Shown here piece by piece: positions 4,457 through 63,180 of a stretch of DNA of 64,000 nt (position 1 is its first letter; every line of letters starts with the position of its first letter). The notes below the pieces were generated by a model, which worked only from the letters and a program-made list of their open reading frames with translations, was not told the DNA's origin and did not search any database. Source of the stretch: Escherichia coli (GTDB lineage: Bacteria > Pseudomonadota > Gammaproteobacteria > Enterobacterales > Enterobacteriaceae); the NCBI RefSeq assembly GCF_048403405.1, contig NZ_CP183129.1. The stretch is one strand, 5' to 3'. A program made the position numbers and the translations under genes.

Positions 4457-5095
4457 ATGCCCGGGCGCTTTGAACTAAAACCAACCCTGGAGAAAGTCTG
4501 GCACGCGCCAGACAATTTTCGCTTCATGGACCCGCTGCCGCCGATGCATCGTCGGGGGATCATTATTGCCGCCATTGTATTGGTGGTCGGATTTCTGCTT
4601 CCATCTGATGATACGCCCAACGCGCCGGTGGTGACGCGTGAAGCGCAGTTAGATATTCAGTCGCAATCACAACCACCGACAGAAGAACAGCTGCGGGCGC
4701 AATTAGTCACGCCACAAAATGATCCTGATCAGGTGGCTCCGGTCGCTCCAGAACCAATACAGGAAGGCCAGCCAGAAGAGCAGCCGCAACCCCCCCAAAC
4801 GCAACCATTCCAGCCAGATAGCGGAATTGATAATCAATGGCGCTCTTACCGTGTCGAACCCGGTAAAACGATGGCACAGCTGTTCCGCGACCACGGGCTG
4901 CCCGCTACCGATGTCTATGCAATGGCGCAGGTAGAAGGCGCGGGTAAGCCGCTGAGTAATTTGCAAAACGGGCAGATGGTGAAAATCCGCCAGAACGCCA
5001 GCGGCGTGGTGACGGGCTTAACCATTGATACGGGGAATAATCAACAGGTCTTGTTTACCCGCCAGCCGGATGGCAGTTTTATTCGTGCGCGGTAG
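4457..5095 (+). CDS. ytfB: Cell-division-associated OapA/LysM-domain protein YtfB
   Basis: Track ORF starts 4421; ATG at 4457 is preceded by AGGAGGA (4446..4452); 212 aa with one TM helix, a Pro/Gln-rich linker and a C-terminal OapA-like domain. Confidence 0.85.
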
Positions 5096-5404
5096 ATGAA
5101 GGGTCAACCAAAAGCCAGCTAAGGATTGTCTCTTTGATGACCTTACGTCTGGCTTCCAGTGCCTGGGGGAAACCATACTGATATGATAAACCAGGCCAAG
5201 CGTATGCTGGTTGATCAAATAATATCCCCCAAGCGCAGCAATATTAATATACACCTGCAATGGGTCGATATCTGGCTTAAAAATATTGTGTTTCTTCCCT
5301 TCATCCAATAAGGATTCCATTAACTGCAAGTGCGCATGATTAATTTCTAAGAGACGCTGTGATTTTGCATAATGCACACCTTTACTTTGGTTTTCACTAT
5401 GCAC
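5018..5404 (-). pseudogene. ytfA: Decayed TetR-family regulator remnant (ytfA-like); only the C-terminal effector-domain-like part is encoded
   Basis: ORF 5018..5404, 128 aa; central segment resembles TetR C-terminal domains but no HTH N-terminus is encoded, and the frame runs 78 nt into the 3-prime end of ytfB. Confidence 0.45.
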
Positions 5405-5751
5405 AATTTTTAAAAACCTGGGATTAGCAATATAATAATTCCATGTAAAATCAATAATTTCTCAATGGCACTTGTGTCTGGTTAACCTGCTGATTAACGA
5501 ACTTACCGATACCGACAGCGTAGAATAATTACATACCGCACAACAAGAATGTATGGTGTAAGGCGTTGTCAGTCATCTCCCTCCCTGGGTGCATCGTTAT
5601 ATCCGTGATGAGCGATTTTTGATATTAATATCTTTTACTATCCGCTATTTTCACCACTTCAGAAAACAAACTTATTTTTATTAATATCAACTCTTTTTCT
5701 TTGAACATTCAACTGCGATATTTGTAAAAATATTAAACAGGCAACAATAAA

Positions 5752-6616: not shown

Positions 6617-7078
<462 letters not shown>

Positions 7079-23166: not shown

Positions 23167-23898
23167 CTAGCTGCGCTGTCGCACCGCTTCAAATAAGCAA
23201 ATCCCTGTCGCCACAGAAACGTTCAGCGAAGAAACACTTCCTGCCATTGGGATGCTGATCAACTCGTCGCAATGTTCACGGGTCAGGCGACGCATACCTT
23301 CACCTTCCGCGCCCATCACCAGCGCCAGGCGTCCGGTCATTTTGCTCTGATAGAGTGTATGATCTGCCTCGCCTGCCGTACCGACGATCCAGATATTCTC
23401 TTCCTGCAACATACGCATGGTGCGCGCCAGATTAGTCACCCGAATCAGCGGAACGCTTTCTGCCGCACCACAGGCCACTTTTTTCGCCGTGGCGTTGAGC
23501 TGTGCGGAGCGATCTTTCGGCACAATCACCGCATGAACACCAGCGGCGTCCGCGCTACGCAGGCACGCGCCGAGGTTGTGCGGATCGGTTACGCCGTCGA
23601 GGATCAGCAGGAACGGTTGATCGAGCGAAGCGATCAGATCCGGCAGATCGTTTTCCTGATACTGCCGTCCTGGCTTCACACGGGCGATAATGCCCTGATG
23701 CACGGCACCGTCGCTTTTCTCGTCGAGATACTGACGGTTCGCCAACTGGATAACCACGCCCTGGGACTCAAGGGCGTGAATCAGCGGTAACAGACGTTTA
23801 TCTTCACGGCCTTTTAAAATAAAGACTTCCTGAAAACGTTCAGGGGCGCGCTCCAGCAGGGCCTGCACTGCGTGGATGCCGTAAATCATTTCGCTCAT
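23167..23898 (-). CDS. rlmB: 23S rRNA (guanosine2251-2-prime-O)-methyltransferase RlmB
   Basis: ORF 23167..23898, 243 aa, SpoU/TrmH-class methyltransferase. Confidence 0.9.
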
Positions 23899-23988: not shown

Positions 23989-26430
23989 TCACTCTGCCAC
24001 TTTTTTCTTCGCCGCACGCTTCGCTTTGGTCGCTGCAGCTATTTTCTGCGTTTTCGCCGATGGCTTTTTCGCTTTTCTCGCGTCTTTCTTCGCCGCTTTC
24101 GGCTTCGTTTTTTTCTCGCCGCGGAAGGCGCTGTCTGGCTCAAAGTTTACCTTTTTACCGACCTGACGACGCTTGCCGCCTTTTTTACCTGCATCGCCTT
24201 TTTTCGCTTTCTCGCGCGCCGTTTTACCGACGTTGCGCGGTGCGCGTTCGCTGGAGATCAGGCTAAAGTCGATTTTGCGCTCGTCCATATTAACCGCTTC
24301 GACGCGAACTTCTACGCGATCGCCCAGGCGATAAGTCTGGCCACTGGATTCACCCATCAGGCGTTGCCCTACCTGGTCAAAGCGATAGTAGTCATTGTCC
24401 AGCGAAGAGACATGGACCAGACCATCAATGAACAAGTCGTCCAGACGGACAAAGAATCCAAAGCCAGCGACGCTGGAAATTACGCCTTTAAAGACGTTAC
24501 CTACCTGGTCGAGCATGAAGTCACACTTCAGCCAGTCAGCTACATCGCGTGTTGCTTCGTCGGCACGACGTTCCGCCATCGAACAGTGCTGACCCAGTTG
24601 CAGCATCTCTTCCATCGAATAATGGTAACCACCGGTTTCAGTGGTGTTGCCCTGATGCCCCTGCTCTTTCGCCAGCAGATACTTAATGGCGCGGTGCAGC
24701 GTCAGGTCAGGATAACGACGAATCGGCGAAGTAAAGTGCGCATAGGACTGCAATGCCAGGCCGAAGTGACCACGGTTTTCCGGATCGTAAATCGCCTGTT
24801 TCATCGAGCGCAGCAGCATGGTTTGCAGCATTTCTGCATCAGGACGATCGGCAACCGACTCCAGCAGCTCCGCGTAGTCACGCGGTTCCGGCTTGTTACC
24901 GCCCGGCAGTTCCAGCCCCAGCTCCGCCAGCACTGAACGGAAAGAGGTAATCGCTTCGGTGCTCGGCTTATCGTGAATACGGAACAGTGCCGGTTCTTTG
25001 GCTTTCTCAACGAAACGCGCCGCCGAGATATTCGCCAGAATCATGCACTCTTCAATTAATTTGTGTGCGTCGTTACGCTGGGTCTGTTCGATACGTTCAA
25101 TACGGCGTTCAGCGTTGAAAATGAACTTCGCTTCTTCGCTCTCAAATGAGATCCCACCGCGTTCTTCACGGGCTTTATCCAGCACTTTATAGAGGTTATG
25201 TAACTCTTCGAGATGCTTAACCAGCGGGGCGTACTGCTCGCGCAGATCCTGATCGCCCTGCAGAATATGCCAGACTTTGGTGTAGGTCAGACGTGCGTGA
25301 GAGCTCATTACCGCTTCATAGAATTTGTAGCCAGTCAGGCGGCCTTTCGACGAAACCGTCATCTCGCACACCATACACAGGCGGTCTACCTGCGGGTTGA
25401 GCGAACACAGACCGTTAGAGAGTACTTCCGGCAGCATCGGGATAACCTGCGAAGGGAAGTACACCGACGTACCACGGTTACGCGCTTCTCTGTCCAGCGG
25501 TGTTGGCGGACGCACATAGTAGCTGACGTCGGCAATCGCGACCCATAAACGCCAGCCGCCGCCGCGTTTTTTCTCGCAGTAAACTGCATCGTCAAAGTCA
25601 CGGGCGTCTTCGCCATCAATGGTGACCAGCGGTAAATCGCGCAGATCGACACGGCCCGCTTTTGCTTCTTCCGGCACTTCTTCTTTCAGCCCGGCAACCT
25701 GTTGCTCAACGGCCTGCGGCCAGATATACGGAATTTCATGGGTACGCAGAGCGATATCAACTGCCATGCCGGTGCCCATATTGTCGCCAAGTACTTCGAC
25801 GATTTTACCCACCGCTTTGGTACGGCGAGTCGGGCGTTGGGTCAGTTCAACCACCACCACAAAGCCCATCCGCGCGCCCATGATCTGATCGGGCGGGATT
25901 AAGATATCGAAGCTCAAACGACTGTCGTCAGGAACCACAAAGCCGACGCCCGCTTCGGTAAAGTAGCGACCAACAATCTGGCTGGTTTTTGGCACCAGTA
26001 CGCGGACAATACGCGCTTCACGACGACCTTTACGGTCAGCGCCCAGCGGCTGCGCCAGCACCTGATCGCCATGAATGCAGGTTTTCATCTGCTCGCTGGA
26101 GAGATACAAATCATCTTTACGCCCTTCAACCCGCAGAAAGCCGTAGCCATCACGGTGGCCAATAACGGTACCTTTCACCAGGTCGAGGCGTTCCGGCAGC
26201 GCATAGCACTGACGACGAGTGAAGACCAGTTGACCATCGCGCTCCATCGCGCGCAGGCGGCGACGCAGGCCTTCAAGCTGCTCTTCGCCTTCAATGTGCA
26301 GTTCTACCGCCAGCTCATCACGGCTGGCCGGTTTTTCACGTTTGGTTAAATGTTCGAGGATAAATTCCCGACTAGGGATGGGATTCGCGTATTTTTCAGC
26401 TTCGCGTTCCTGGAAAGGATCTTGTGACAT
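23989..26430 (-). CDS. rnr: Exoribonuclease R (RNase R)
   Basis: Track ORF to 26472; ATG at 26430 gives [14 protein letters not shown]..., 813 aa; RNB and S1 domains and Lys-rich C-terminal tail. Confidence 0.9.
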
Positions 26431-31131: not shown

Positions 31132-32412
31132 TTAGATCAGGTAATCGATCAACGCCGGTTCTTGTTTACAGAGGCGACGCCAGTCAACGATCGGCATACG
31201 AACTTGCAGACTTACGCTGCCGTCCTCCTCCATCCACTCTTTTTCTATTGCCTGAAGCTGATAAAAACGACTTCTCAGACGCCCTTCCTGCGGTGGCAGA
31301 CGCAATGTATGCTGCGCCACCTCGCCGGAAAGCCGCTCCGTCAAAGCCTGAAAAAGCTGTGGTATCCCCGCTCCGGTCTGTGCGGAAAGCCAGACACGGA
31401 TCGGTTTGTTCTCTTCGTCCCGATCAATACGCGGTTCGAAATCTTCCAGCATATCGATCTTGTTCATCACCAGCAGGGTTGGGATCTCGTGAGCGTCGAT
31501 CTCTTCAAGAACCGTATTCACCGCTTCGATGTTTTCTTGTACACGCACATCCGCCGCATCAATGACGTGCAGCAGCAATGTGGCTTGCCGCGTCTCTTGT
31601 AACGTGGCTTTAAATGCCGCCACCAGATCGTGCGGCAGGTGGCGAATAAACCCTACGGTATCAGCCAACACGGTTTCACCGACATCTGCGACGTCAATAC
31701 GCCGCAACGTCGGGTCGAGGGTGGCAAACAACTGGTCTGCCGCGTAGACCCGCGCTTCGGTGATGCGATTGAAAAGGGTAGATTTACCGGCGTTGGTATA
31801 TCCCACCAGCGAAACAGTAGGAACGTCGGCTTTGATACGCGATTGCCGCCCCTGCTCACGCTGCTTTTCAACTCTTTCCAGGCGCGACTGTATCTGCACG
31901 ATGCGATTACGCAACAAACGACGGTCGGTTTCGAGCTGGGTTTCACCCGGACCACGCAAACCTATCCCGCCTTTCTGTCTTTCAAGGTGGGTCCAGCCAC
32001 GCACCAGGCGCGTAGCCAGATGGCGCAGCTGCGCCAGCTCAACCTGCAACTTACCCTCATGGGTACGCGCACGTTGGGCGAAAATATCTAAAATAAGGCC
32101 GGTGCGGTCGATGACACGACACTCGCACAAACGCTCCAGGTTACGCTCTTGCGCCGGACTCAGGGCATGGTCAAAAAGAACGACCGAAGCACCCGTCGCT
32201 TTGACAGCTTCCGCAATTTCAACTGCTTTACCTTCACCTACAAAATACTTTGGGTGCGGCGCTTTACGGCTACCGGTAATCACCTGCAATGCTTCGACAC
32301 CGGCGGAAGAGACCAGAGATTCAAACTCCTGGAGGTCTTCCATATCTTTGTCTTGCGTAAAATAGATGTGTACCAGTACCGCCTGCTCACCAGCATCATA
32401 ACGGTCAAACAA
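31132..32412 (-). CDS. hflX: Ribosome-associated GTPase HflX
   Basis: ORF 31132..32412, 426 aa; [10 protein letters not shown]-loop. Confidence 0.95.
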
Positions 32413-32882: not shown

Positions 32883-33833
32883 TCAGCCTGCGATAGCACC
32901 AACAACCTGTAATACTTCGCCACGCGCTTGTTCTGGTTTTTCACTGTCAAGCCAGTGAACCCCTTCCCAACCACGCAGCCAGGTTATCTGCCGCTTCGCC
33001 AACTGTCTCGTGGCGCAAACACCTCGATAAACCATTTCATCGTATGAGATTTCGCCTTCAAGGTAAGACCACATCTGGCGATAACCCACGCAACGAATGG
33101 AAGGCAAGTCCGTATGCAAATCTCCTCGGGCAAAAAGCGCCCGGACTTCTGCTTCAAAACCTGAAGCCAACATCTGATGAAAACGCTGCTCAATTCGTTG
33201 ATGGAGCAGTTCACGGCTCGCCGGGGCGATGGCGAACTGATGCACCTGATACGGTAGAGCGTCTCCTGACGTTTGCGTCAGTTCCGTTAAAGTTTTACCC
33301 GAAATGAAAAAAACTTCCAGTGCCCGGGAAAGCCTTTGTGGATCATTTGGATGAATCCTTGCTGCCGCAACCGGATCGATCTCCTGAAGTTGACGATGCA
33401 ATGACTCCCAACCTTGCTCTGCCGCCTGTTGCTCAATTCTGGCCCGCACTTCCGGGTCTGCCGACGGTAGCGGCGACAACCCTTCCAGCAATGCCTTGAA
33501 ATACAACATCGTACCGCCCACTAACAGTGGGATCCGCCCCGCCGCGGTGATATCGGCCATTTCCGCCAGCGCATCGCGGCGAAAATCAGCAGCCGAGTAA
33601 GCCTGCGACGGATCGCGAATATCCAGCAATCGGTGCGGCGCGGCGAGTAACTCTTCAGCGTTCGGCTTCGCCGTCCCGATATCCATCCCTTTGTAAATAA
33701 GGGCAGAATCAACGCTTATCAACTCTACTGGTAAAATTTTACGCAGCTCAATGGCTAACGCCGTTTTACCGGAGGCCGTCGGCCCCATCAAAAAAATCGC
33801 CTTAGGCAGGCTCGCCTTACTGATATCACTCAT
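32883..33833 (-). CDS. miaA: tRNA dimethylallyltransferase MiaA
   Basis: ORF 32883..33833, 316 aa, GPTASGKT P-loop; start overlaps the mutL 3-prime end by 8 nt. Confidence 0.95.
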
Positions 33834-35673
33834 CTTTCAGGGCTTTTATCGCCGGATGTAAATCAACAGATTGTAACAGACCACCCGGCGGCGTTTTCAC
33901 AAGTTGCGGACATAACCGTTCCACGTCCGCTAGCAGGGTTATGGCCTGTGCCATTGACCACTGCGCATGTTCGCTCATCAGATTTCGTGCAATCCACTGC
34001 GCAATATTGCCAGGTTCGAATACGGACTGCTTCGCCAGGTAGCCTATCAGTTCAGGAATCAAGATTTGTAAATTTTGTTGGCGTAAGGGTAAAGGCACGG
34101 CCCTGATGGTCACATGCTGTGCATCTGACTGGAAATCAATACCCAATTCCGCCAGGGCAGACTGCGCTTTTTCTAATGCCGATTTTTCTTCGCCAGAAAC
34201 TTTTAGCCGCAACGGAATAAGCAACGGCTGGGCGCAAACTGGCGCTTCACCCGGCGTCAGTTGCGCCTGACGCAGCCAACGTTCTGCCACTGGCAAGGCT
34301 AAAAGTGAAATGTTGCCGTCGCGCTCCAGCAACGCACAGTCGGAATGAACGATAGTCAGTACCCGACCAAAACTCTGACTGTTCGCCGCAAGTGCAGGTT
34401 CCTGCGGTTCTGGCGCTTTTGGTTTTTGCATCGGCGCGGGCGTTTGCAAAAGCTGGCGATACACTTCACCTTGCTGTTTCTGGTAACCTGGCTGCGCATT
34501 CGGCCAGGGGGCAGCCGGACGACTGCCTGAGGCGGGCGCAGGAGTGTAACGCGGAGCTACTGGCTCACGAAATGCCGGTTCAGCAAAATGATTGCGCCCC
34601 GCCGCCACGCGGTTTTCCGGGATGGCGCGCGGTGCAGGTTGTGGTTCATCGTCCAGCGGTAGCGGCGTTTCCAGTTGCTGTTGTAGCACGCTCAGCACGC
34701 CCTGATAGATAAAATCATGCACCAGACGCGACTGATGGAAACGCACTTCGTGTTTGGCAGGGTGCACGTTGACGTCCACCTGATGTGGGTCGATCTCCAG
34801 ATACAGCACAAATGCCGGTTGCTGATCGGCCCCCAGTTTGTCTTCACAGGCCTGGCGGATCGCGTGATTGATCAGGCGATCGCGCATCATGCGACCATTC
34901 ACATAGCAATACTGAATTTCCGCCAGTGCGGGCGTGGTGTGATTCGGATCTGCCACCCAGCCGCGCAGCGTAAGATCGCCGTGTTGCCATTCAATCGCCA
35001 GCGCTTGTTCGAGAAAAGCGGTACCGCAAATCGCGCCTAAGCGCCGTTCTTTTTGCCCGCCTTCCGGCACTGCGCGGTACTGACGCACAATTTTACCGTT
35101 ATGCGACAGGTTGATCGTGACGTCGAAACGCGCCAGTGCAATGCGGCGGATGATCTCATCAATGTGGTTAAATTCGGTTTTCTCGGTGCGCAGGAATTTG
35201 CGCCGCGCCGGGGTGTTGTAGAACAGATCCAGCACCTCCAGCGTCGTTCCCACAGGATGCGCCGCCGGTTTTACCGTCACGTCCATATCGCGCCCTTCGG
35301 CATAGGCCTGCCAGGCTTCCTGCTGTTCTGCGGTACGTGAAGTGAGCGTCAGGCGGGAAACCGAACTGATACTCGCCAGAGCCTCACCGCGAAAGCCCAG
35401 GCTGATAATGGCTTCGAGATCGTCCAGAGAGGCGATTTTACTGGTGGCATGACGAGCCAGCGCCAGCGCCAGCTCATCTTTTTTGATACCGCAGCCGTTA
35501 TCACGAATGCGGATAAGTTTCGCCCCACCGCGTTCGATATCAATATCGATACGCGTCGCACCTGCATCGAGGCTGTTTTCCACCAGTTCTTTGACTACCG
35601 ACGCAGGTCGCTCGACCACCTCACCTGCGGCAATCTGGTTCGCCAGTTGTGGCGGTAAGACCTGAATTGGCAT
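33826..35673 (-). CDS. mutL: DNA mismatch repair protein MutL
   Basis: Track ORF to 35676 starts at TTG; ATG at 35673 gives [23 protein letters not shown]..., 615 aa. Confidence 0.95.
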
Positions 35674-35682
35674 CAATAATCC

Positions 35683-37020
35683 TTAGTTTGGCAGCGTGCG
35701 ATCTGGCGTCGTCACCGTACTGGCCGTTTGTGCCGCTGTACCCTGCGGCGCAGATTGCATCGGATGCGCAAGGAAATAATTACGCAGGCCTTTGTAAATG
35801 GCTTCTGCCAGCTGTTGTTGGTAATCGTCGCTCGCCAGCAAACGTTCTTCGCTGTTGTTGCTGATAAAACCGGTTTCGACCAGTACTGATGGGATATCCG
35901 GCGAGCGCAGAACGCCAAGGCTGGCGTGTTCTGGTCGACGTTTATGAATTTCGCCAATGCGTTGCAACTGACTGATCATACTGGTCGCTACATCATACCC
36001 TACCCGCTGGGAATGACCGAACTGTAAATCCAGCACCGCCTGGCTTAAATAGGGGTCAGACTGACTGTTCGCCAGCACATCGCCCGCTCCGCCCAATAGC
36101 TCCGACTGTTTCTCATGCTGTTCCAGCCAGCTTGCCATCTCGCTGTTTGCACGACGGTTAGAGAGCACCCATACGGAAGCGCCAGTCGCACTGCGGTTTG
36201 GTGCGGCATCAGCGTGAATCGACACGAGGAAATTGGCGTTTTGCTTACGTGCCACATCGCTGCGCCCCATCACCGAAATAAAGTAATCCCCATCACGAGT
36301 TAAAACGCCTTTAAACATCGGATCGTCATTGAGCAAAGTACGCAATTTACGCGCGATGGCGATGGTGACATTTTTCTCCCGCGTACCACCGGGGCCGATA
36401 GCGCCAGGATCCTGACCGCCGTGTCCGGCATCAATAGCGATGATAATTTTATCGCCTGTGTTAGCCGTCGCACGCGCTGCCAGACGCGTTACCGTATTAC
36501 TGCTGATAACACCCGTAGTGCGGTTACTTTCCGTTTTAAACGGATTGCGCGCCGGTTCGCTGACGCGCGGTGCGACAACCGCAGGCGTTTCAACGCGTTT
36601 CGCAACCACAGGCGGCGGAGGAGGCGGTGGCGGCGCATCGGCGTTAATCGTAAAGACGACAGTGTAATTGCTGCCATTCTGCCGCTTCACCGCTTCGGTT
36701 TTACCATTTTCGGTAAGATCGACCACCAGCCGTAGCGTTTGTGCATCTTTAGGCGTTCCAGAGCGAATCGCCTTCACCAGATTATTGCCGCTGAACAACA
36801 ACGGCAGTCCCTGAATCACGCCCGTTTGTTTGATATCGAGCGCCACGGTGCGTTTGCTTTGATGGCTAAACGCATAATCAGGATCGCCAATAAAACTCAA
36901 CGTTATCCGCGCCTGTTGGTTGCCGTTAGAAACCTGAATATCAGAGAGCGTCGCGGCACCCACCGACGCGCACAGCAGCAGCAACGTCGCTACCAACCAA
37001 TTTCTGATGCGATACATCAT
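35683..37020 (-). CDS. amiB: N-acetylmuramoyl-L-alanine amidase AmiB
   Basis: ATG at 37020 gives [23 protein letters not shown]..., 445 aa; contains a PPPPPPPP tract; amidase_3 domain. Confidence 0.9.
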
Positions 37021-37038: not shown

Positions 37039-39017
<1,979 letters not shown>

Positions 39018-39019
<2 letters not shown>

Positions 39020-40157
39020 GTCAGAGCCCCTCGATCTCAATCAGTTAGCGCAAAAAATTAAACAGTGGGGGCTGGAACTGGGCTTTCAGCAGGTAGGTAT
39101 TACCGATACCGATCTCAGCGCGTCCGAGCCCAAACTGCAAGCATGGCTGGACAAACAATACCACGGCGAAATGGACTGGATGGCGCGTCACGGTATGCTG
39201 CGTGCTCGTCCTCACGAATTATTGCCCGGTACGCTGCGCGTGATCAGCGTGCGGATGAATTACCTTCCTGCTAACGCCGCATTTGCCAGCACGCTGAAAA
39301 ATCCCAAACTCGGCTATGTTAGCCGTTATGCGCTGGGCCGTGACTATCACAAGCTTCTGCGCAACCGACTCAAAAAGCTGGGCGAGATGATTCAGCAACA
39401 TTGTGTTTCGCTGAATTTTAGACCGTTTGTCGATTCTGCGCCTATTCTCGAGCGCCCGTTAGCTGAAAAAGCAGGACTTGGCTGGACAGGTAAGCACTCA
39501 CTTATCCTCAATCGCGAAGCCGGTTCGTTCTTCTTTTTAGGCGAATTGCTGGTCGATATTCCGCTGCCCGTGGATCAACCAGTCGAGGAAAGATGCGGTA
39601 AATGCGTGGCCTGTATGACGATTTGCCCGACCGGTGCCATCGTCGAGCCATATACCGTAGATGCTCGCCGCTGCATTTCTTATCTGACGATAGAACTGGA
39701 AGGGGCGATCCCGGAAGAGTTACGCCCGTTAATGGGAAACCGTATTTACGGTTGCGATGACTGCCAGCTTATCTGCCCGTGGAATCGCTATTCACAACTC
39801 ACTACAGAAGACGATTTCAGCCCGCGTAAGCCGCTACACGCACCGGAACTCATTGAGTTATTCGCCTGGAGCGAAGAGAAGTTTTTAAAAGTCACGGAAG
39901 GATCGGCGATTCGCCGTATAGGTCACCTGCGCTGGCTGCGTAATATCGCCGTGGCATTAGGCAATGCCCCCTGGGATGAAACGATTCTGGCGGCGCTGGA
40001 GAGTCGCAAAGGTGAGCACCCACTTCTTGATGAGCACATAGCGTGGGCGATTGCGCAGCAAATAGAGAGACGAAATGCGTGCATAGTCGAAGTGCAATTG
40101 CCGAAAAAACAGCGTCTGGTTCGGGTGATTGAAAAAGGGTTACCGCGTGACGCCTGA
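39018..40157 (+). CDS. queG: Epoxyqueuosine reductase QueG
   Basis: Track ORF from 38910; ATG at 39018 gives MSEPLDLNQLAQKIKQ..., 379 aa; two 4Fe-4S Cys clusters (CGKCVACMTICP, CDDCQLICP). Confidence 0.9.
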
Positions 40158-40426: not shown

Positions 40427-40502
<76 letters not shown>

Positions 40503-40537
40503 TTGGGTGGTCTGTGCTTTACAGCACTTTCAAATTT

Positions 40538-40613
<76 letters not shown>

Positions 40614-40770
40614 TTAATCTTCGTCTTTCGAACCGCTACTGCCTTGGCTGCCTTCACTCACCTTAGTCACTTACTTTTGTAAGCTCCCAAGGATTCGTTC
40701 AGTTGCCGCCTTGTCGCAATTCGAAATACTGCGATTGGGTGGTCTGTGCTTTGCAGCACTTTTCAAATTT

Positions 40771-40846
<76 letters not shown>

Positions 40847-41696: not shown

Positions 41697-42749
41697 TTGA
41701 GTAAAAATAAACTCTCCAAAGGCCAGCAGCGCCGCGTGAACGCCAATCACCAGCGTCGTCTTAAAACGTCTAAGGAGAAGCCCGACTACGACGACAATCT
41801 GTTTGGCGAGCCTGATGAAGGTATCGTCATCAGCCGCTTTGGTATGCACGCTGATGTGGAATCCGCCGATGGCGACGTTCACCGCTGCAATATTCGCCGT
41901 ACCATCCGTTCGCTGGTGACCGGCGACCGCGTAGTCTGGCGTCCGGGTAAACCGGCGGCGGAAGGCGTAAATGTCAAAGGGATCGTGGAAGCGGTGCATG
42001 AGCGCACCTCGGTGTTGACGCGCCCGGACTTCTACGACGGCGTGAAACCTATTGCCGCCAACATCGACCAGATTGTTATTGTCTCCGCCATTTTGCCGGA
42101 GCTGTCGCTCAATATTATCGACCGTTACCTGGTGGCCTGCGAAACCTTGCTGATTGAGCCGATTATTGTGCTCAACAAGATAGACCTGCTGGACGACGAA
42201 GGCATGGAGTTCGTCAACGAACAGATGGATATCTACCGCAACATTGGTTATCGCGTATTGATGGTTTCCAGTCATACTCAGGATGGGCTGAAACCGCTGG
42301 AAGAGGCGTTGACCGGACGCATCAGCATTTTTGCCGGGCAGTCTGGCGTTGGCAAATCCAGCCTGCTTAACACGTTGCTGGGGCTGCAAAAAGAGATCCT
42401 GACCAACGATGTTTCTGACAACTCGGGTCTCGGTCAGCACACCACGACCGCCGCTCGGCTGTATCACTTCCCGCACGGCGGTGATGTGATTGACTCCCCA
42501 GGTGTGCGTGAGTTCGGCCTCTGGCACCTGGAGCCGGAACAAATCACTCAGGGCTTTGTCGAATTCCATGACTATTTAGGTCTGTGTAAATATCGCGATT
42601 GCAAACACGATACCGATCCGGGCTGCGCTATCCGGGAAGCGGTTGAGGAAGGGAAAATCGCGGAAACCCGTTTCGAAAACTATCACCGTATTCTGGAAAG
42701 CATGGCGCAGGTAAAAACGCGTAAAAACTTTTCTGATACGGATGACTGA
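41697..42749 (+). CDS. rsgA: Small-ribosomal-subunit biogenesis GTPase RsgA
   Basis: Track ORF from 41664; TTG at 41697 gives (M)[12 protein letters not shown]..., 350 aa; circularly permuted GTPase with a C-terminal Zn-binding Cys cluster. Confidence 0.85.
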
Positions 42750-49030: not shown

Positions 49031-50008
49031 TTATGCCCGGTCAACGCTAAAGGCGATGACTTCAGCCAGTGTCTCCGCGCCCAGCGCCAACATCACCAGA
49101 CGATCAACGCCTAATGCCACGCCGGAACAGTCAGGCATACCGACTTTCAAGGCTTCAATCAGATTCTGGTCAATGGGGTGCTGCGGCAAACCGCGCGCCG
49201 CGCGCTTACGGTTATCTTGTTCAAAGCGTTGTTGCTGCTCACGGGCATCCGTCAATTCATGGAAACCATTCGCCAGCTCAATACCTTTATAATAAACCTC
49301 AAAGCGTTCAGCGACCCGATGATCTTCGGTACTGATTTGCGCCAGTGATGCCTGGCTGGCTGGAAAGTGGTACACAAAGGTCGGTTTTTCTTTACCAATA
49401 TTTGGCTCTACGCCAAAGGTAAACAGCAATTGTAGCAACGTGTCACGGTCTTCTTCGGTATCTGCAACGTTGCTCAAATCCAGTTTCGCTGCCACTTCCC
49501 GCAGTTGCGTTTTGTCGGCAGAGAGCGGGTCAATTTCCAGATAACGCAAGAAAGCTTGTTGATAAGAAAGGCTTTCTGCTGCCGGGCAGTCCAGCACTTG
49601 TTGTAAGAGATCGTCCACCTCGTTCATCAACCGGTACATATCATAGTGCGGTCGATACCACTCAAGCATAGTGAACTCAGGGTTGTGATAACGCCCCATC
49701 TCTTCATTACGGAAGCTGCGGCACAGCTGGAATACCGGCCCACAACCGGCAACCAGCAGGCGCTTCATATGGTATTCCGGGCTGGTCATTAACCAGAGAT
49801 TCATCCCCTGCGAATGCCCGGGGCCAACGAAACGTGTCTCAAACGGGACCAAATGAATATCGGTTACCGTCGCCTGGCTCATACAAGGCGTCTCCACCTC
49901 CAGCACTCCACGATCGGCAAAGAAACGACGGATCTCCGCCATAATCGCCGCGCGTTTTAATAAGTTAGGAATGGATGCGCTCGGCTGCCAGGATGCCGTT
50001 TCGCTCAT
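49031..50008 (-). CDS. epmA: EF-P lysine-34 (R)-beta-lysine ligase EpmA
   Basis: Track ORF to 50053; ATG at 50008 gives [20 protein letters not shown]..., 325 aa, class II aaRS-like catalytic core. Confidence 0.9.
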
Positions 50009-56384: not shown

Positions 56385-56951
56385 TTACTTCACGCGAGAG
56401 ACGTATTCACCAGAGCGGGTATCCACTTTGATGACTTCGCCGATTTGTACGAACAGCGGAACTTTAACCACAGCGCCAGTAGACAGGGTAGCCGGTTTGC
56501 CGCCAGTACCTGCGGTATCACCTTTCAGGCCCGGATCGGTATCCACGATTTCCAGTTCAACGAAGTTCGGCGGAGTAACGGAGATCGGCTGACCATTCCA
56601 CAGAGTTACGATACACTCTGCCTGATCCAGCAACCATTTAGCGTTGTCGCCAATTGCTTTTGCATCAGCAGACAGTTGCTCGAAAGTTTCGTTGTTCATG
56701 AAGTGCCAGAACTCACCGTCGTTGTACAGGTAAGTCAGGTTCATATCGACAACATCAGCACCTTCAGCGGAATCAGTAGATTTGAAGGTTTTTTCTACGC
56801 GAGTACCGGTCAGCAGACGACGCAGTTTAACGCGAGCAAATGCCTGGCCTTTACCCGGTTTTACGAATTCACTCGCTTCAACCGCGTAAGGTTCGCCGTC
56901 TAACATGATTTTAAGACCAGCACGAAAATCGTTGCTATAGTACGTTGCCAT
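56385..56951 (-). CDS. efp: Translation elongation factor P
   Basis: ORF 56385..56951, 188 aa, [15 protein letters not shown]... with the modified Lys34 in the KPGKGQA loop. Confidence 0.97.
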
Positions 56952-56992: not shown

Positions 56993-58021
56993 ATGGCGCA
57001 TATTGTAACCCTAAATACCCCATCCAGAGAAGATTGGTTAACGCAACTTGCCGATGTTGTGACCGATCCTGATGAACTTCTGCGTCTTTTGAATATAGAC
57101 GCGGACGAAAAACTGTTGGCCGGACGCAGCGCCAAAAAGCTGTTTGCCCTGCGTGTGCCCCGCTCATTTATCGATCGCATGGAGAAAGGCAATCCGAACG
57201 ATCCGCTTTTGCGTCAGGTAATTACCTCGCAAGATGAGTTTGTCGTCGCGCCCGGATTCTCCACCGACCCGCTGGAAGAACAGCACAGCGTAGTGCCAGG
57301 TTTGTTGCATAAATACCACAACCGGGCGCTTTTGCTGGTCAAAGGCGGCTGCGCGGTAAATTGCCGCTATTGCTTCCGTCGCCACTTCCCCTATGCCGAA
57401 AATCAGGGCAACAAGCGTAACTGGCAAACTGCACTTGAGTATGTTGCTGCGCATCCGGAACTGGACGAGATGATTTTCTCCGGCGGCGATCCGCTGATGG
57501 CGAAAGATCACGAGCTGGACTGGTTGCTCACACAACTGGAAGCCATCCCGCATATCAAACGTCTGCGGATTCACAGCCGTCTGCCGATTGTGATCCCGGC
57601 ACGCATCACAGATGCGCTGGTTGAACGCTTTTCACATTCTACGCTGCAAATCTTGCTGGTGAATCACATCAACCATGCCAATGAGATAGATGAAACATTC
57701 CGTCAGGCGATGGCTAAGTTGCGCCGGGTCGGCGTTACTTTGCTCAACCAGAGCGTTCTGTTACGTGGCGTGAACGATAACGCGCAAACGCTGGCAAACC
57801 TGAGTAATGCGTTGTTCGATGCCGGCGTGATGCCGTATTACCTGCATGTGCTCGATAAAGTACAGGGCGCGGCGCATTTTATGGTGAGTGATGACGAAGC
57901 ACGGCAGATTATGCGTGAGTTGCTGACACTGGTGTCGGGATATCTGGTGCCTAAACTGGCGCGAGAAATTGGCGGCGAACCCAGCAAAACGCCGCTGGAT
58001 CTCCAGCTACGCCAGCAGTAA
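56993..58021 (+). CDS. epmB: EF-P beta-lysylation lysine 2,3-aminomutase EpmB
   Basis: ORF 56993..58021, 342 aa, radical-SAM CxxxCxxC (CAVNCRYC) motif; divergent from efp. Confidence 0.9.
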   Translation: MAHIVTLNTPSREDWLTQLADVVTDPDELLRLLNIDADEKLLAGRSAKKLFALRVPRSFIDRMEKGNPNDPLLRQVITSQDEFVVAPGFSTDPLEEQHSVVPGLLHKYHNRALLLVKGGCAVNCRYCFRRHFPYAENQGNKRNWQTALEYVAAHPELDEMIFSGGDPLMAKDHELDWLLTQLEAIPHIKRLRIHSRLPIVIPARITDALVERFSHSTLQILLVNHINHANEIDETFRQAMAKLRRVGVTLLNQSVLLRGVNDNAQTLANLSNALFDAGVMPYYLHVLDKVQGAAHFMVSDDEARQIMRELLTLVSGYLVPKLAREIGGEPSKTPLDLQLRQQ

Positions 58022-61923: not shown

Positions 61924-63180
61924 ATGAGTGGACTCAAACAAGAACTGGGGCTGGCCCAGGGCATTGGCCTGCTATCGACGTCATTATTAGGCACCGGCGT
62001 GTTTGCCGTTCCTGCGTTAGCTGCACTGGTAGCAGGCAATAACAGCCTGTGGGCGTGGCCCGTTTTGATTATCTTAGTGTTCCCGATTGCGATTGTGTTT
62101 GCGATTCTGGGTCGCCACTATCCCAGCGCAGGCGGCGTCGCGCACTTCGTCGGTATGGCGTTTGGTTCGCGGCTTGAGCGAGTCACCGGCTGGCTGTTTT
62201 TATCAGTCATTCCCGTGGGTTTGCCTGCCGCACTACAAATTGCAGCCGGATTCGGCCAGGCAATGTTTGGCTGGCATAGCTGGCAACTGTTGTTGGCAGA
62301 ACTCGGTACGCTGGCGCTGGTGTGGTATATCGGTACTCGCGGTGCTAGTTCCAGTGCTAATCTACAAACAGTTATTGCCGGACTTATCGTCGCGCTGATT
62401 GTCGCTATCTGGTGGGCGGGCGATATCAAACCTGCGAATATCCCCTTCCCTGCACCTGGTAATATCGAACTTACCGGGTTATTTGCTGCGTTATCAGTGA
62501 TGTTCTGGTGCTTTGTCGGTCTGGAGGCATTTGCCCATCTTGCCTCGGAATTTAAAAATCCAGAGCGTGATTTTCCTCGTGCTTTGATGATTGGTCTGCT
62601 GCTGGCAGGATTAGTCTACTGGGGCTGTACGGTAGTCGTCTTACACTTCGACGCCTATGGTGAACAAATGGCGGCAGCAGCATCGCTTCCAAAAATTGTA
62701 GTGCAACTGTTCGGTGTAGGAGCGTTATGGATTGCCTGCGTGATTGGCTATCTGGCCTGCTTTGCCAGTCTCAACATTTATATACAGAGCTTCGCCCGCC
62801 TGGTCTGGTCGCAGGCGCAACATAATCCTGACCACTACCTGGCACGCCTCTCTTCTCGTCATATCCCGAATAATGCCCTCAATGCGGTGCTCGGCTGCTG
62901 CGTGGTGAGCACGTTGGTGATTCATGCTTTAGGGATCAATCTGGACGCACTTATCATCTATGCCAATGGCATCTTTATTATGATTTATCTGTTATGCATG
63001 CTGGCAGGCTGTAAATTATTGCAAGGTCGTTATCGACTACTGGCGGTGGTTGGCGGGCTGTTATGCGTTCTGTTACTGGCAATGGTCGGCTGGAAAAGTC
63101 TCTATGCGCTGATCATGCTGGCGGGGTTATGGCTGTTTCTGCCAAAACGAAAAACGCCGGAAAATGGCATAACCACATAA
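61924..63180 (+). CDS. yjeH: APC-family amino-acid exporter YjeH
   Basis: Track ORF from 61864; ATG at 61924 gives MSGLKQELGLAQGIGLL..., 418 aa polytopic. Confidence 0.85.
   Translation: MSGLKQELGLAQGIGLLSTSLLGTGVFAVPALAALVAGNNSLWAWPVLIILVFPIAIVFAILGRHYPSAGGVAHFVGMAFGSRLERVTGWLFLSVIPVGLPAALQIAAGFGQAMFGWHSWQLLLAELGTLALVWYIGTRGASSSANLQTVIAGLIVALIVAIWWAGDIKPANIPFPAPGNIELTGLFAALSVMFWCFVGLEAFAHLASEFKNPERDFPRALMIGLLLAGLVYWGCTVVVLHFDAYGEQMAAAASLPKIVVQLFGVGALWIACVIGYLACFASLNIYIQSFARLVWSQAQHNPDHYLARLSSRHIPNNALNAVLGCCVVSTLVIHALGINLDALIIYANGIFIMIYLLCMLAGCKLLQGRYRLLAVVGGLLCVLLLAMVGWKSLYALIMLAGLWLFLPKRKTPENGITT

Follow-up and report, generated by a model that had tools for sequence, protein, structure and literature searches.

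The eight-proline run of Escherichia coli AmiB as a probable interdomain spacer at which ribosomes stall unless EF-P helps

The closest described systems are the stall motifs of elongation factor P (EF-P), namely PPP, PPG and XPPX, with CadC, AtpD and ValS among their examples, and the amiB gene of Escherichia coli likewise carries successive proline codons. In E. coli, the activity of EF-P depends on EpmA and EpmB. According to Martens et al. (2015), the longest run of proline codons in any E. coli gene is that of amiB, and this run of eight, unlike the other stall motifs, is the longest reported in E. coli K-12 (PMC4402525). Whereas a regulatory role has been demonstrated for CadC, that of the amiB tract is putative at most. 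Another point of comparison is given by the motifs at domain boundaries described by Qi et al. (2018, PMC5811046), within whose zone of -2 to +9 residues from domain ends the amiB tract falls, three residues past the end of a domain; those data are statistical and a folding pause was proposed on their basis, whereas the length of the amiB tract varies even within the species. As for the protein itself, the division amidases AmiB and AmiC have in common the order of signal peptide, AMIN domain, flexible linker and Amidase_3 domain, and septal cleavage is described as a task common to AmiA, AmiB and AmiC (PMC12440217).

The window, that is, the whole stretch of 64,000 nucleotides of E. coli DNA analysed here, contains the following features of amiB.

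35683 to 37020, minus strand: amiB, N-acetylmuramoyl-L-alanine amidase AmiB, 445 aa (NCBIfam NF007751 equivalog; an identical gene is annotated by RefSeq in strain TUM14771)
36640 to 36951, minus strand: AMIN domain, about residues 24-127 (Pfam PF11741 at residues 27-112; AlphaFold2 model)
36610 to 36633, minus strand: tract of eight prolines (P8), AmiB residues 130-137 (translated in frame)
36448 to 36639, minus strand: inter-domain linker, residues 128-191, with P8 at its start (low pLDDT; predicted to be disordered)
35767 to 36447, minus strand: Amidase_3 catalytic domain, about residues 192-418 (Pfam PF01520 at residues 194-413; PDB 8c0j; model)

The assignment to AmiB is supported by a match to the NF007751 equivalog over the full length of the protein (970.5 bits for a cut-off of 532, residues 1-445 covered), by the presence of both the AMIN and the Amidase_3 domains, and by the tsaE-amiB-mutL context; over the amiB region, the identity is 100% with strain TUM14771 and 97.4% with K-12. 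An AlphaFold2 model, computed with a 40-sequence alignment as input (mean pLDDT of 80.9), places the strands of the AMIN domain at residues 24-127 with block-mean pLDDT values of about 86-95, the last β-strand being formed by residues 118-127, and the start of the catalytic domain at residue 192. Between them, the mean pLDDT falls to 63 over residues 131-140, and most of the values for residues 141-187 are under 50. The P8 tract thereby starts three residues past the last AMIN β-strand, at the beginning of a low-confidence linker of about 64 residues, which is probably disordered according to this model. The solved AmiB structure (PDB 8c0j) comprises residues 190-422 only and, in the FtsEX-EnvC-AmiB complex of P. 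aeruginosa, the AmiB linker of about 40 residues was described as flexible and left unbuilt (PMC10214136).

Some observations on the window concern its comparison with TUM14771, its closest strain, with which 59,307 of the 64,000 bases agree position by position. The coordinates of ytfF and cycA are shifted by one base relative to that strain, which suggests an indel of 1 bp somewhere below about position 5,700, and the window probably stems from another strain closely related to TUM14771. At the other end, yjeH (61924-63180, plus strand) is an intact 1257-nt open reading frame in the window, starting with MSGLKQELG, while the TUM14771 gene is a 1256-nt feature marked as frameshifted by RefSeq. 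Besides, the TUM14771 annotation indicates the remnant of a TetR/AcrR-family regulator between yjfZ and ytfB (about 5078-5461), which lacks its N-terminus and is marked as a pseudogene.

An octa-proline tract in amiB had been announced by an earlier note on this DNA, and its presence is confirmed by in-frame translation of positions 36610-36633 of the minus strand, which yields PPPPPPPP from the codons CCG CCA CCG CCT CCT CCG CCG CCT (amiB codons 130-137). The coordinates given at that time, 36611-36634, were displaced by one base, a frame in which the translation would read AATASSAA. Polyproline stall sites are recognised by at least three successive in-frame proline codons, and amiB has eight of them. 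Proline accounts for 4.54% of the 18,367 residues of the 66 annotated proteins in the window, and the P8 run can hardly be due to chance, since the number of such runs expected there is only about 3e-7 (18,367 x 0.0454^8). Among these 66 proteins, PPP or PPG motifs are found only in AmiB (P8), YtfE (PPP) and MutL (PPG). The YtfE motif reads TPPPE (ytfE at 1190-1852, approximate to one base) and that of MutL reads TPPG (mutL at 33826-35673); for the PPP of ytfE, the published asymmetry score increases merely from 0.75 to 2.63 in Δefp. An open reading frame on the plus strand at 36421-36735 (104 aa, with the stretch RRRRRRW) was considered as a separate gene and rejected, being the antisense mirror of the proline codons inside the well-supported amiB.

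As regards ribosome stalling, a sharp rise in ribosome footprints at the amiB tract was already seen in wild-type cells by Martens et al. (2015), who also noticed a low expression level of the gene (PMC4402525). More recently, asymmetry scores at PPP/PPV positions were provided by the profiling of E. coli BW25113 by Sieber et al. (2024; PMC11611912, Supplementary Data 3B). There, the amiB score is 1.0-1.24 in the wild type, 6.7-10.5 in Δefp, 1.0-2.9 in ΔefpL, and 3.8-6.7 in Δefp cells overexpressing EfpL. This behaviour is like that of cadC, in that the amiB asymmetry, about 1 with EF-P, reaches 7-10 upon its loss and is partially rescued by EfpL overexpression. An asymmetry that goes up on efp deletion, by which EF-P-dependent stall sites are recognised, is therefore found in published data for the K-12 allele, from which the tract of the window differs solely in its preceding residue (A instead of V). 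The EF-P dependence of stalling at the amiB run, as proposed in the earlier note, thus finds support in published Δefp ribosome profiling.

The amiB response can be placed among those of other genes in the span of the same table running from aas to creB, where it is comparable to changes in score from 2.6 to 10.8 for the PPP of cadC, from 1.1 to 13.6 for apbC, and from about 2 to 16-19 for atpD in Δefp (PMC11611912). Within that span, Δefp scores of at least 10 are reached by nine genes, namely acnB, amiB, apbC, araC, atpD, bcsB, cadC, clcB and cpxA, and, despite its eight residues, the effect of amiB is no larger than that of some three-residue motifs (cpxA, bcsB, atpD). The amiB gene is thus a strong EF-P client without being an exceptional one. 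For comparison, a PPPPPP stretch inserted in GFP gives a wild-type/Δefp ratio of 16-21-fold (PMC3638311). It should be kept in mind that the asymmetry score reflects ribosome distribution and not protein output, and, because amiB expression is low, the loss of protein through the pause may be smaller than a 7-10-fold asymmetry would lead one to believe. In vitro translation of AmiB with and without EF-P was reportedly carried out by Doerfel et al. in 2013, and is not used as evidence here. No discussion of amiB was found in the main text of Sieber et al. (2024, PMC11611912), nor any mention of it in the supplements of Elgamal 2014 or of AmiB in Starosta 2014, and neither a measurement of the AmiB protein nor a cell-separation phenotype in EF-P pathway mutants, nor phenotype data for the natural alleles of the tract, were found in the accessible literature, outside which Peil 2013 and Woolstenhulme 2015 fall. 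The tract and its stalling without EF-P are already published, so that the prediction is not new; what is new here is the placement of the tract after the AMIN domain, its pattern of conservation in the Enterobacteriaceae and the allelic series within E. coli.

Concerning conservation, one genome per species was scanned in the Enterobacteriaceae, yielding 80 loci, and a proline tract is present at the same position in all of them (80/80), directly after YTVVFTI[ND]A[DE]x. The longest run comprises 3 prolines in 1 locus, 4 in 2 loci, 5 in 12, 6 in 15, 7 in 14, 8 in 30 (the commonest class), 9 in 5 and 10 in 1; examples are P10 in Raoultella planticola, P6 in E. albertii, and P5 in Salmonella enterica subsp. 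arizonae and diarizonae. At the DNA level, 81 distinct versions of the tract occur in 88 loci, synonymous codons varying freely, while proline is encoded by 609 of the 617 tract codons in these 88 loci when a pattern tolerating one interruption is used. So many spellings for a nearly invariant residue argue for selection at the level of the amino acid and not of a repeat in the DNA. Outside the family, 123 distant homologues were considered as representatives at 50% identity clustering with the N-terminal region kept, and the longest proline run before the catalytic DAGHGG is of 1 residue in 61 of them, 2 in 49, 3 in 9 and at least 4 in 4. In other words, 119 of the 123 have no proline run longer than three before the catalytic domain, and two of the four others (P0121 and P0148) retain the enterobacterial FTI[ND]AD context. 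In the same way, an AmiB of Yersiniaceae is devoid of the tract and displays a Ser/Gly-rich VVFTLSGQGSSSTVSRSAPAAP at that position. Judging from these sequences, the long proline run in the linker, confined to Enterobacteriaceae and lacking in a Yersiniaceae AmiB and most of the 123 distant homologues, is a lineage-specific feature, which AmiB in general does not require. Turning to the rest of the linker, Escherichia whittamii (L009) has a 10-residue tandem duplication right after P8, which suggests that the linker evolves through duplications of a unit similar to PVVA(K/P)RVE; the linker of E. coli already resembles two degenerate copies, the first of them PVVAKRVET.

The tract is also polymorphic within E. 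coli. Full-gene alignments give P8 for the window and K-12, P6 for strain EC100, and PPSPPP for strains AVS0578, GmM077 and E19; in addition, PPSPPP is found in an O25b:H4-ST131 strain, P6 in MS8320 and P5 in 2022H048. When a 75-nt P8-specific query was compared with 5426 complete E. coli genomes, a P8-length allele was found at no less than 95% identity in 4417 of them (about 81%), and 899 genomes fell in the band of 80-95% identity, in which six sampled full-query matches measured 69 nt in the record, that is, two codons fewer. The PPSPPPM allele has an exact match in 698 genomes and a close one in 149. Overall, about 16% of E. coli genomes, ST131 included, have a tract that is shorter or interrupted, and the alleles seen differ only by whole codons or by single substitutions (e.g., CCA to TCG, giving serine). 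Besides, some AmiB proteins of E. coli and Shigella (P0006-P0015) are only 414-420 aa long, keep P8 and miss about 25-31 linker residues, and the length of the linker 3' of the tract is thus also variable in nature.

The window also holds three genes of the EF-P pathway, as the earlier note had pointed out.

56385 to 56951, minus strand: efp, elongation factor P, which acts in trans (NCBIfam efp, 253.6 bits for a cut-off of 185.8; annotation)
56993 to 58021, plus strand: epmB, lysine 2,3-aminomutase for EF-P beta-lysylation (TIGR03821, 533 bits for a cut-off of 369; annotation)
49031 to 50008, minus strand: epmA, EF-P--(R)-beta-lysine ligase, 325 aa (NF006828, 604 bits for a cut-off of 264; annotation)

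All three score above the equivalog cut-offs. The wording of that note, according to which both EF-P modification enzymes are encoded there, holds for the presence of epmA and epmB, but not for the number of enzymes, since a third one exists, the hydroxylase EpmC/YfcM (reviewed in PMC12856214), whose gene was not found among the annotated genes of the window. The genes efp and epmB lie next to each other in divergent orientation, an arrangement in which amiB has no part: it belongs to the same-strand run nnr-tsaE-amiB-mutL-miaA-hfq-hflX, apart from efp/epmB and epmA, with 12.4 kb between it and epmA and 19.8 kb between it and efp/epmB. The interval between amiB and epmA contains tsaE, nnr, queG, three tRNA-Gly genes, orn, rsgA, psd, mscM and yjeM, and the one between epmA and efp contains frdABCD, ampC, blc, sugE and ecnAB. 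The amiB gene is thus neither adjacent to efp, epmA or epmB nor in a common transcription unit with them, and a functional cluster of amiB with efp/epmAB was rejected on the basis of gene order.

Other translation-related genes of the window encode ribosomal proteins S6, S18 and L9, HflX (a ribosome-rescue GTPase), RsgA, RNase R, RlmB, MiaA, TsaE and QueG; their coordinates include rplI 6617-7066, rlmB 23167-23898, rnr 23989-26430, hflX 31132-32412, miaA 32883-33833, tsaE 37039-37500, queG 39018-40157, three tRNA-Gly genes at about 40427-40846, and rsgA 41697-42749. L9, the product of rplI, is reported to help cells deficient in EF-P to grow. No sign was found that the clustering of translation genes exceeds the known map of this chromosome region.

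Taken together, P8 is very probably a linker spacer at which ribosomes stall unless EF-P helps, its proximity to the EF-P genes being a coincidence. Its position and the predicted disorder of the linker suggest that the most likely role of the tract is that of a stiff and extended spacer between the AMIN and catalytic domains. During translation, as with other series of proline codons, ribosomes stall there unless EF-P aids the formation of Pro-Pro bonds. When EF-P is available, hardly anything of this stall remains, whereas, in its absence, ribosomes accumulate at the tract and AmiB synthesis should fall, leading one to expect less AmiB in mutants of efp, epmA or epmB. The EF-P dependence of amiB is due to the proline codons and not to their map position, which adds nothing to the prediction since every Pro-Pro site of the cell is served in trans by EF-P.

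Could the tract instead be a selected pause after AMIN, giving time for folding of the domain or for the signal peptide and export machinery? Its location exactly at the domain boundary of the model would fit such a role, as would the enrichment of polyproline at -2 to +9 residues from domain ends, for which an aid to co-translational folding was proposed by Qi et al. (2018, PMC5811046), the footprint peak already seen at the tract in the wild type (PMC4402525), and the retention of a proline run in 80/80 Enterobacteriaceae loci despite its cost. However, the wild-type asymmetry of about 1.0-1.2 indicates that EF-P largely removes the delay, the length is unfixed (3-10 prolines across species; P8, P6, P5 and PPSPPP within E. 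coli), AmiB proteins of the same architecture outside the Enterobacteriaceae do without the tract, and a structural spacer explains the same conservation, all of which makes a selected pause unlikely. The variation by whole codons, within E. coli (8, 6 or 5) as well as between species (3-10), could also evoke a hypermutable simple-sequence repeat, i.e. a contingency locus maintained by replication slippage and not by selection on the protein. This is highly improbable: the codons are mixed (CCG, CCA, CCT) and form no perfect DNA repeat, the reading frame is intact in every tract allele examined, proline is kept although third positions are free (81 DNA versions in 88 loci), and one length class dominates in E. 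coli (4417 of 5426 at P8 length). The perfect repeat and frame-shifting length changes that characterise phase-variable contingency loci are both absent from the amiB tract in the loci examined, and a repeat acting at the DNA level was rejected on account of the mixed codons, the whole-codon differences and the retention of proline.

A last reading would unite amiB with efp, epmA and epmB in one regulon or functional neighbourhood, with a CadC-like coupling of cell separation to EF-P. The gene with the longest E. coli proline run does lie less than 20 kb from efp, for which the chance is about 1% when calculated post hoc for one pre-chosen gene on a chromosome of 4.6-5 Mb, and cadC shows that tuning through polyproline exists (PMC12856214). 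Against this stand the unrelated genes between amiB and efp, about 20 in number, which belong to both strands and to separate transcription units, the fact that the conserved neighbours of amiB in full-gene strain comparisons are tsaE and mutL, the shorter or interrupted tract that about 16% of the E. coli genomes carry, ST131 among them, and the division of septal cleavage among three amidases. In addition, no paper joining EF-P with amidases or cell separation was found in the literature searched. Such a coupling is hardly credible, and the meaning that the earlier note had seen in amiB sharing a window with the EF-P genes is unsupported, given the 12.4 and 19.8 kb and the many unrelated genes that separate them; these 12-20 kb reflect a coincidence of the enterobacterial gene map. 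In more general terms, it seems improbable that the proline run is kept as a working translational device, be it a pause timing folding or export, or a way to make the AmiB supply sensitive to EF-P. Such a device is compatible with the presence of the tract in 80/80 loci, the retention of proline as codons vary and the domain-boundary site, but it has no positive support over a plain structural spacer.

The proline run of amiB is thus a published, textbook-style polyproline stall, whose EF-P dependence at the ribosome was already in public data. The importance of the present analysis beyond confirmation is little, with two modest additions, namely a lineage-specific feature of the linker and a natural allelic series. 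A strong phenotype of EF-P mutants arising from amiB alone is not expected, because AmiB overlaps AmiA and AmiC in function. The P8, P6, P5 and PPSPPP series can be used to ask how the strength of the stall relates to the length of the proline run in a native gene, and could help to tell a spacer role from a pause role. If the tract did turn out to be a translational device, the AmiB level or its sensitivity to EF-P would be set differently by P8, P6, P5 and the PPSPPP of ST131.
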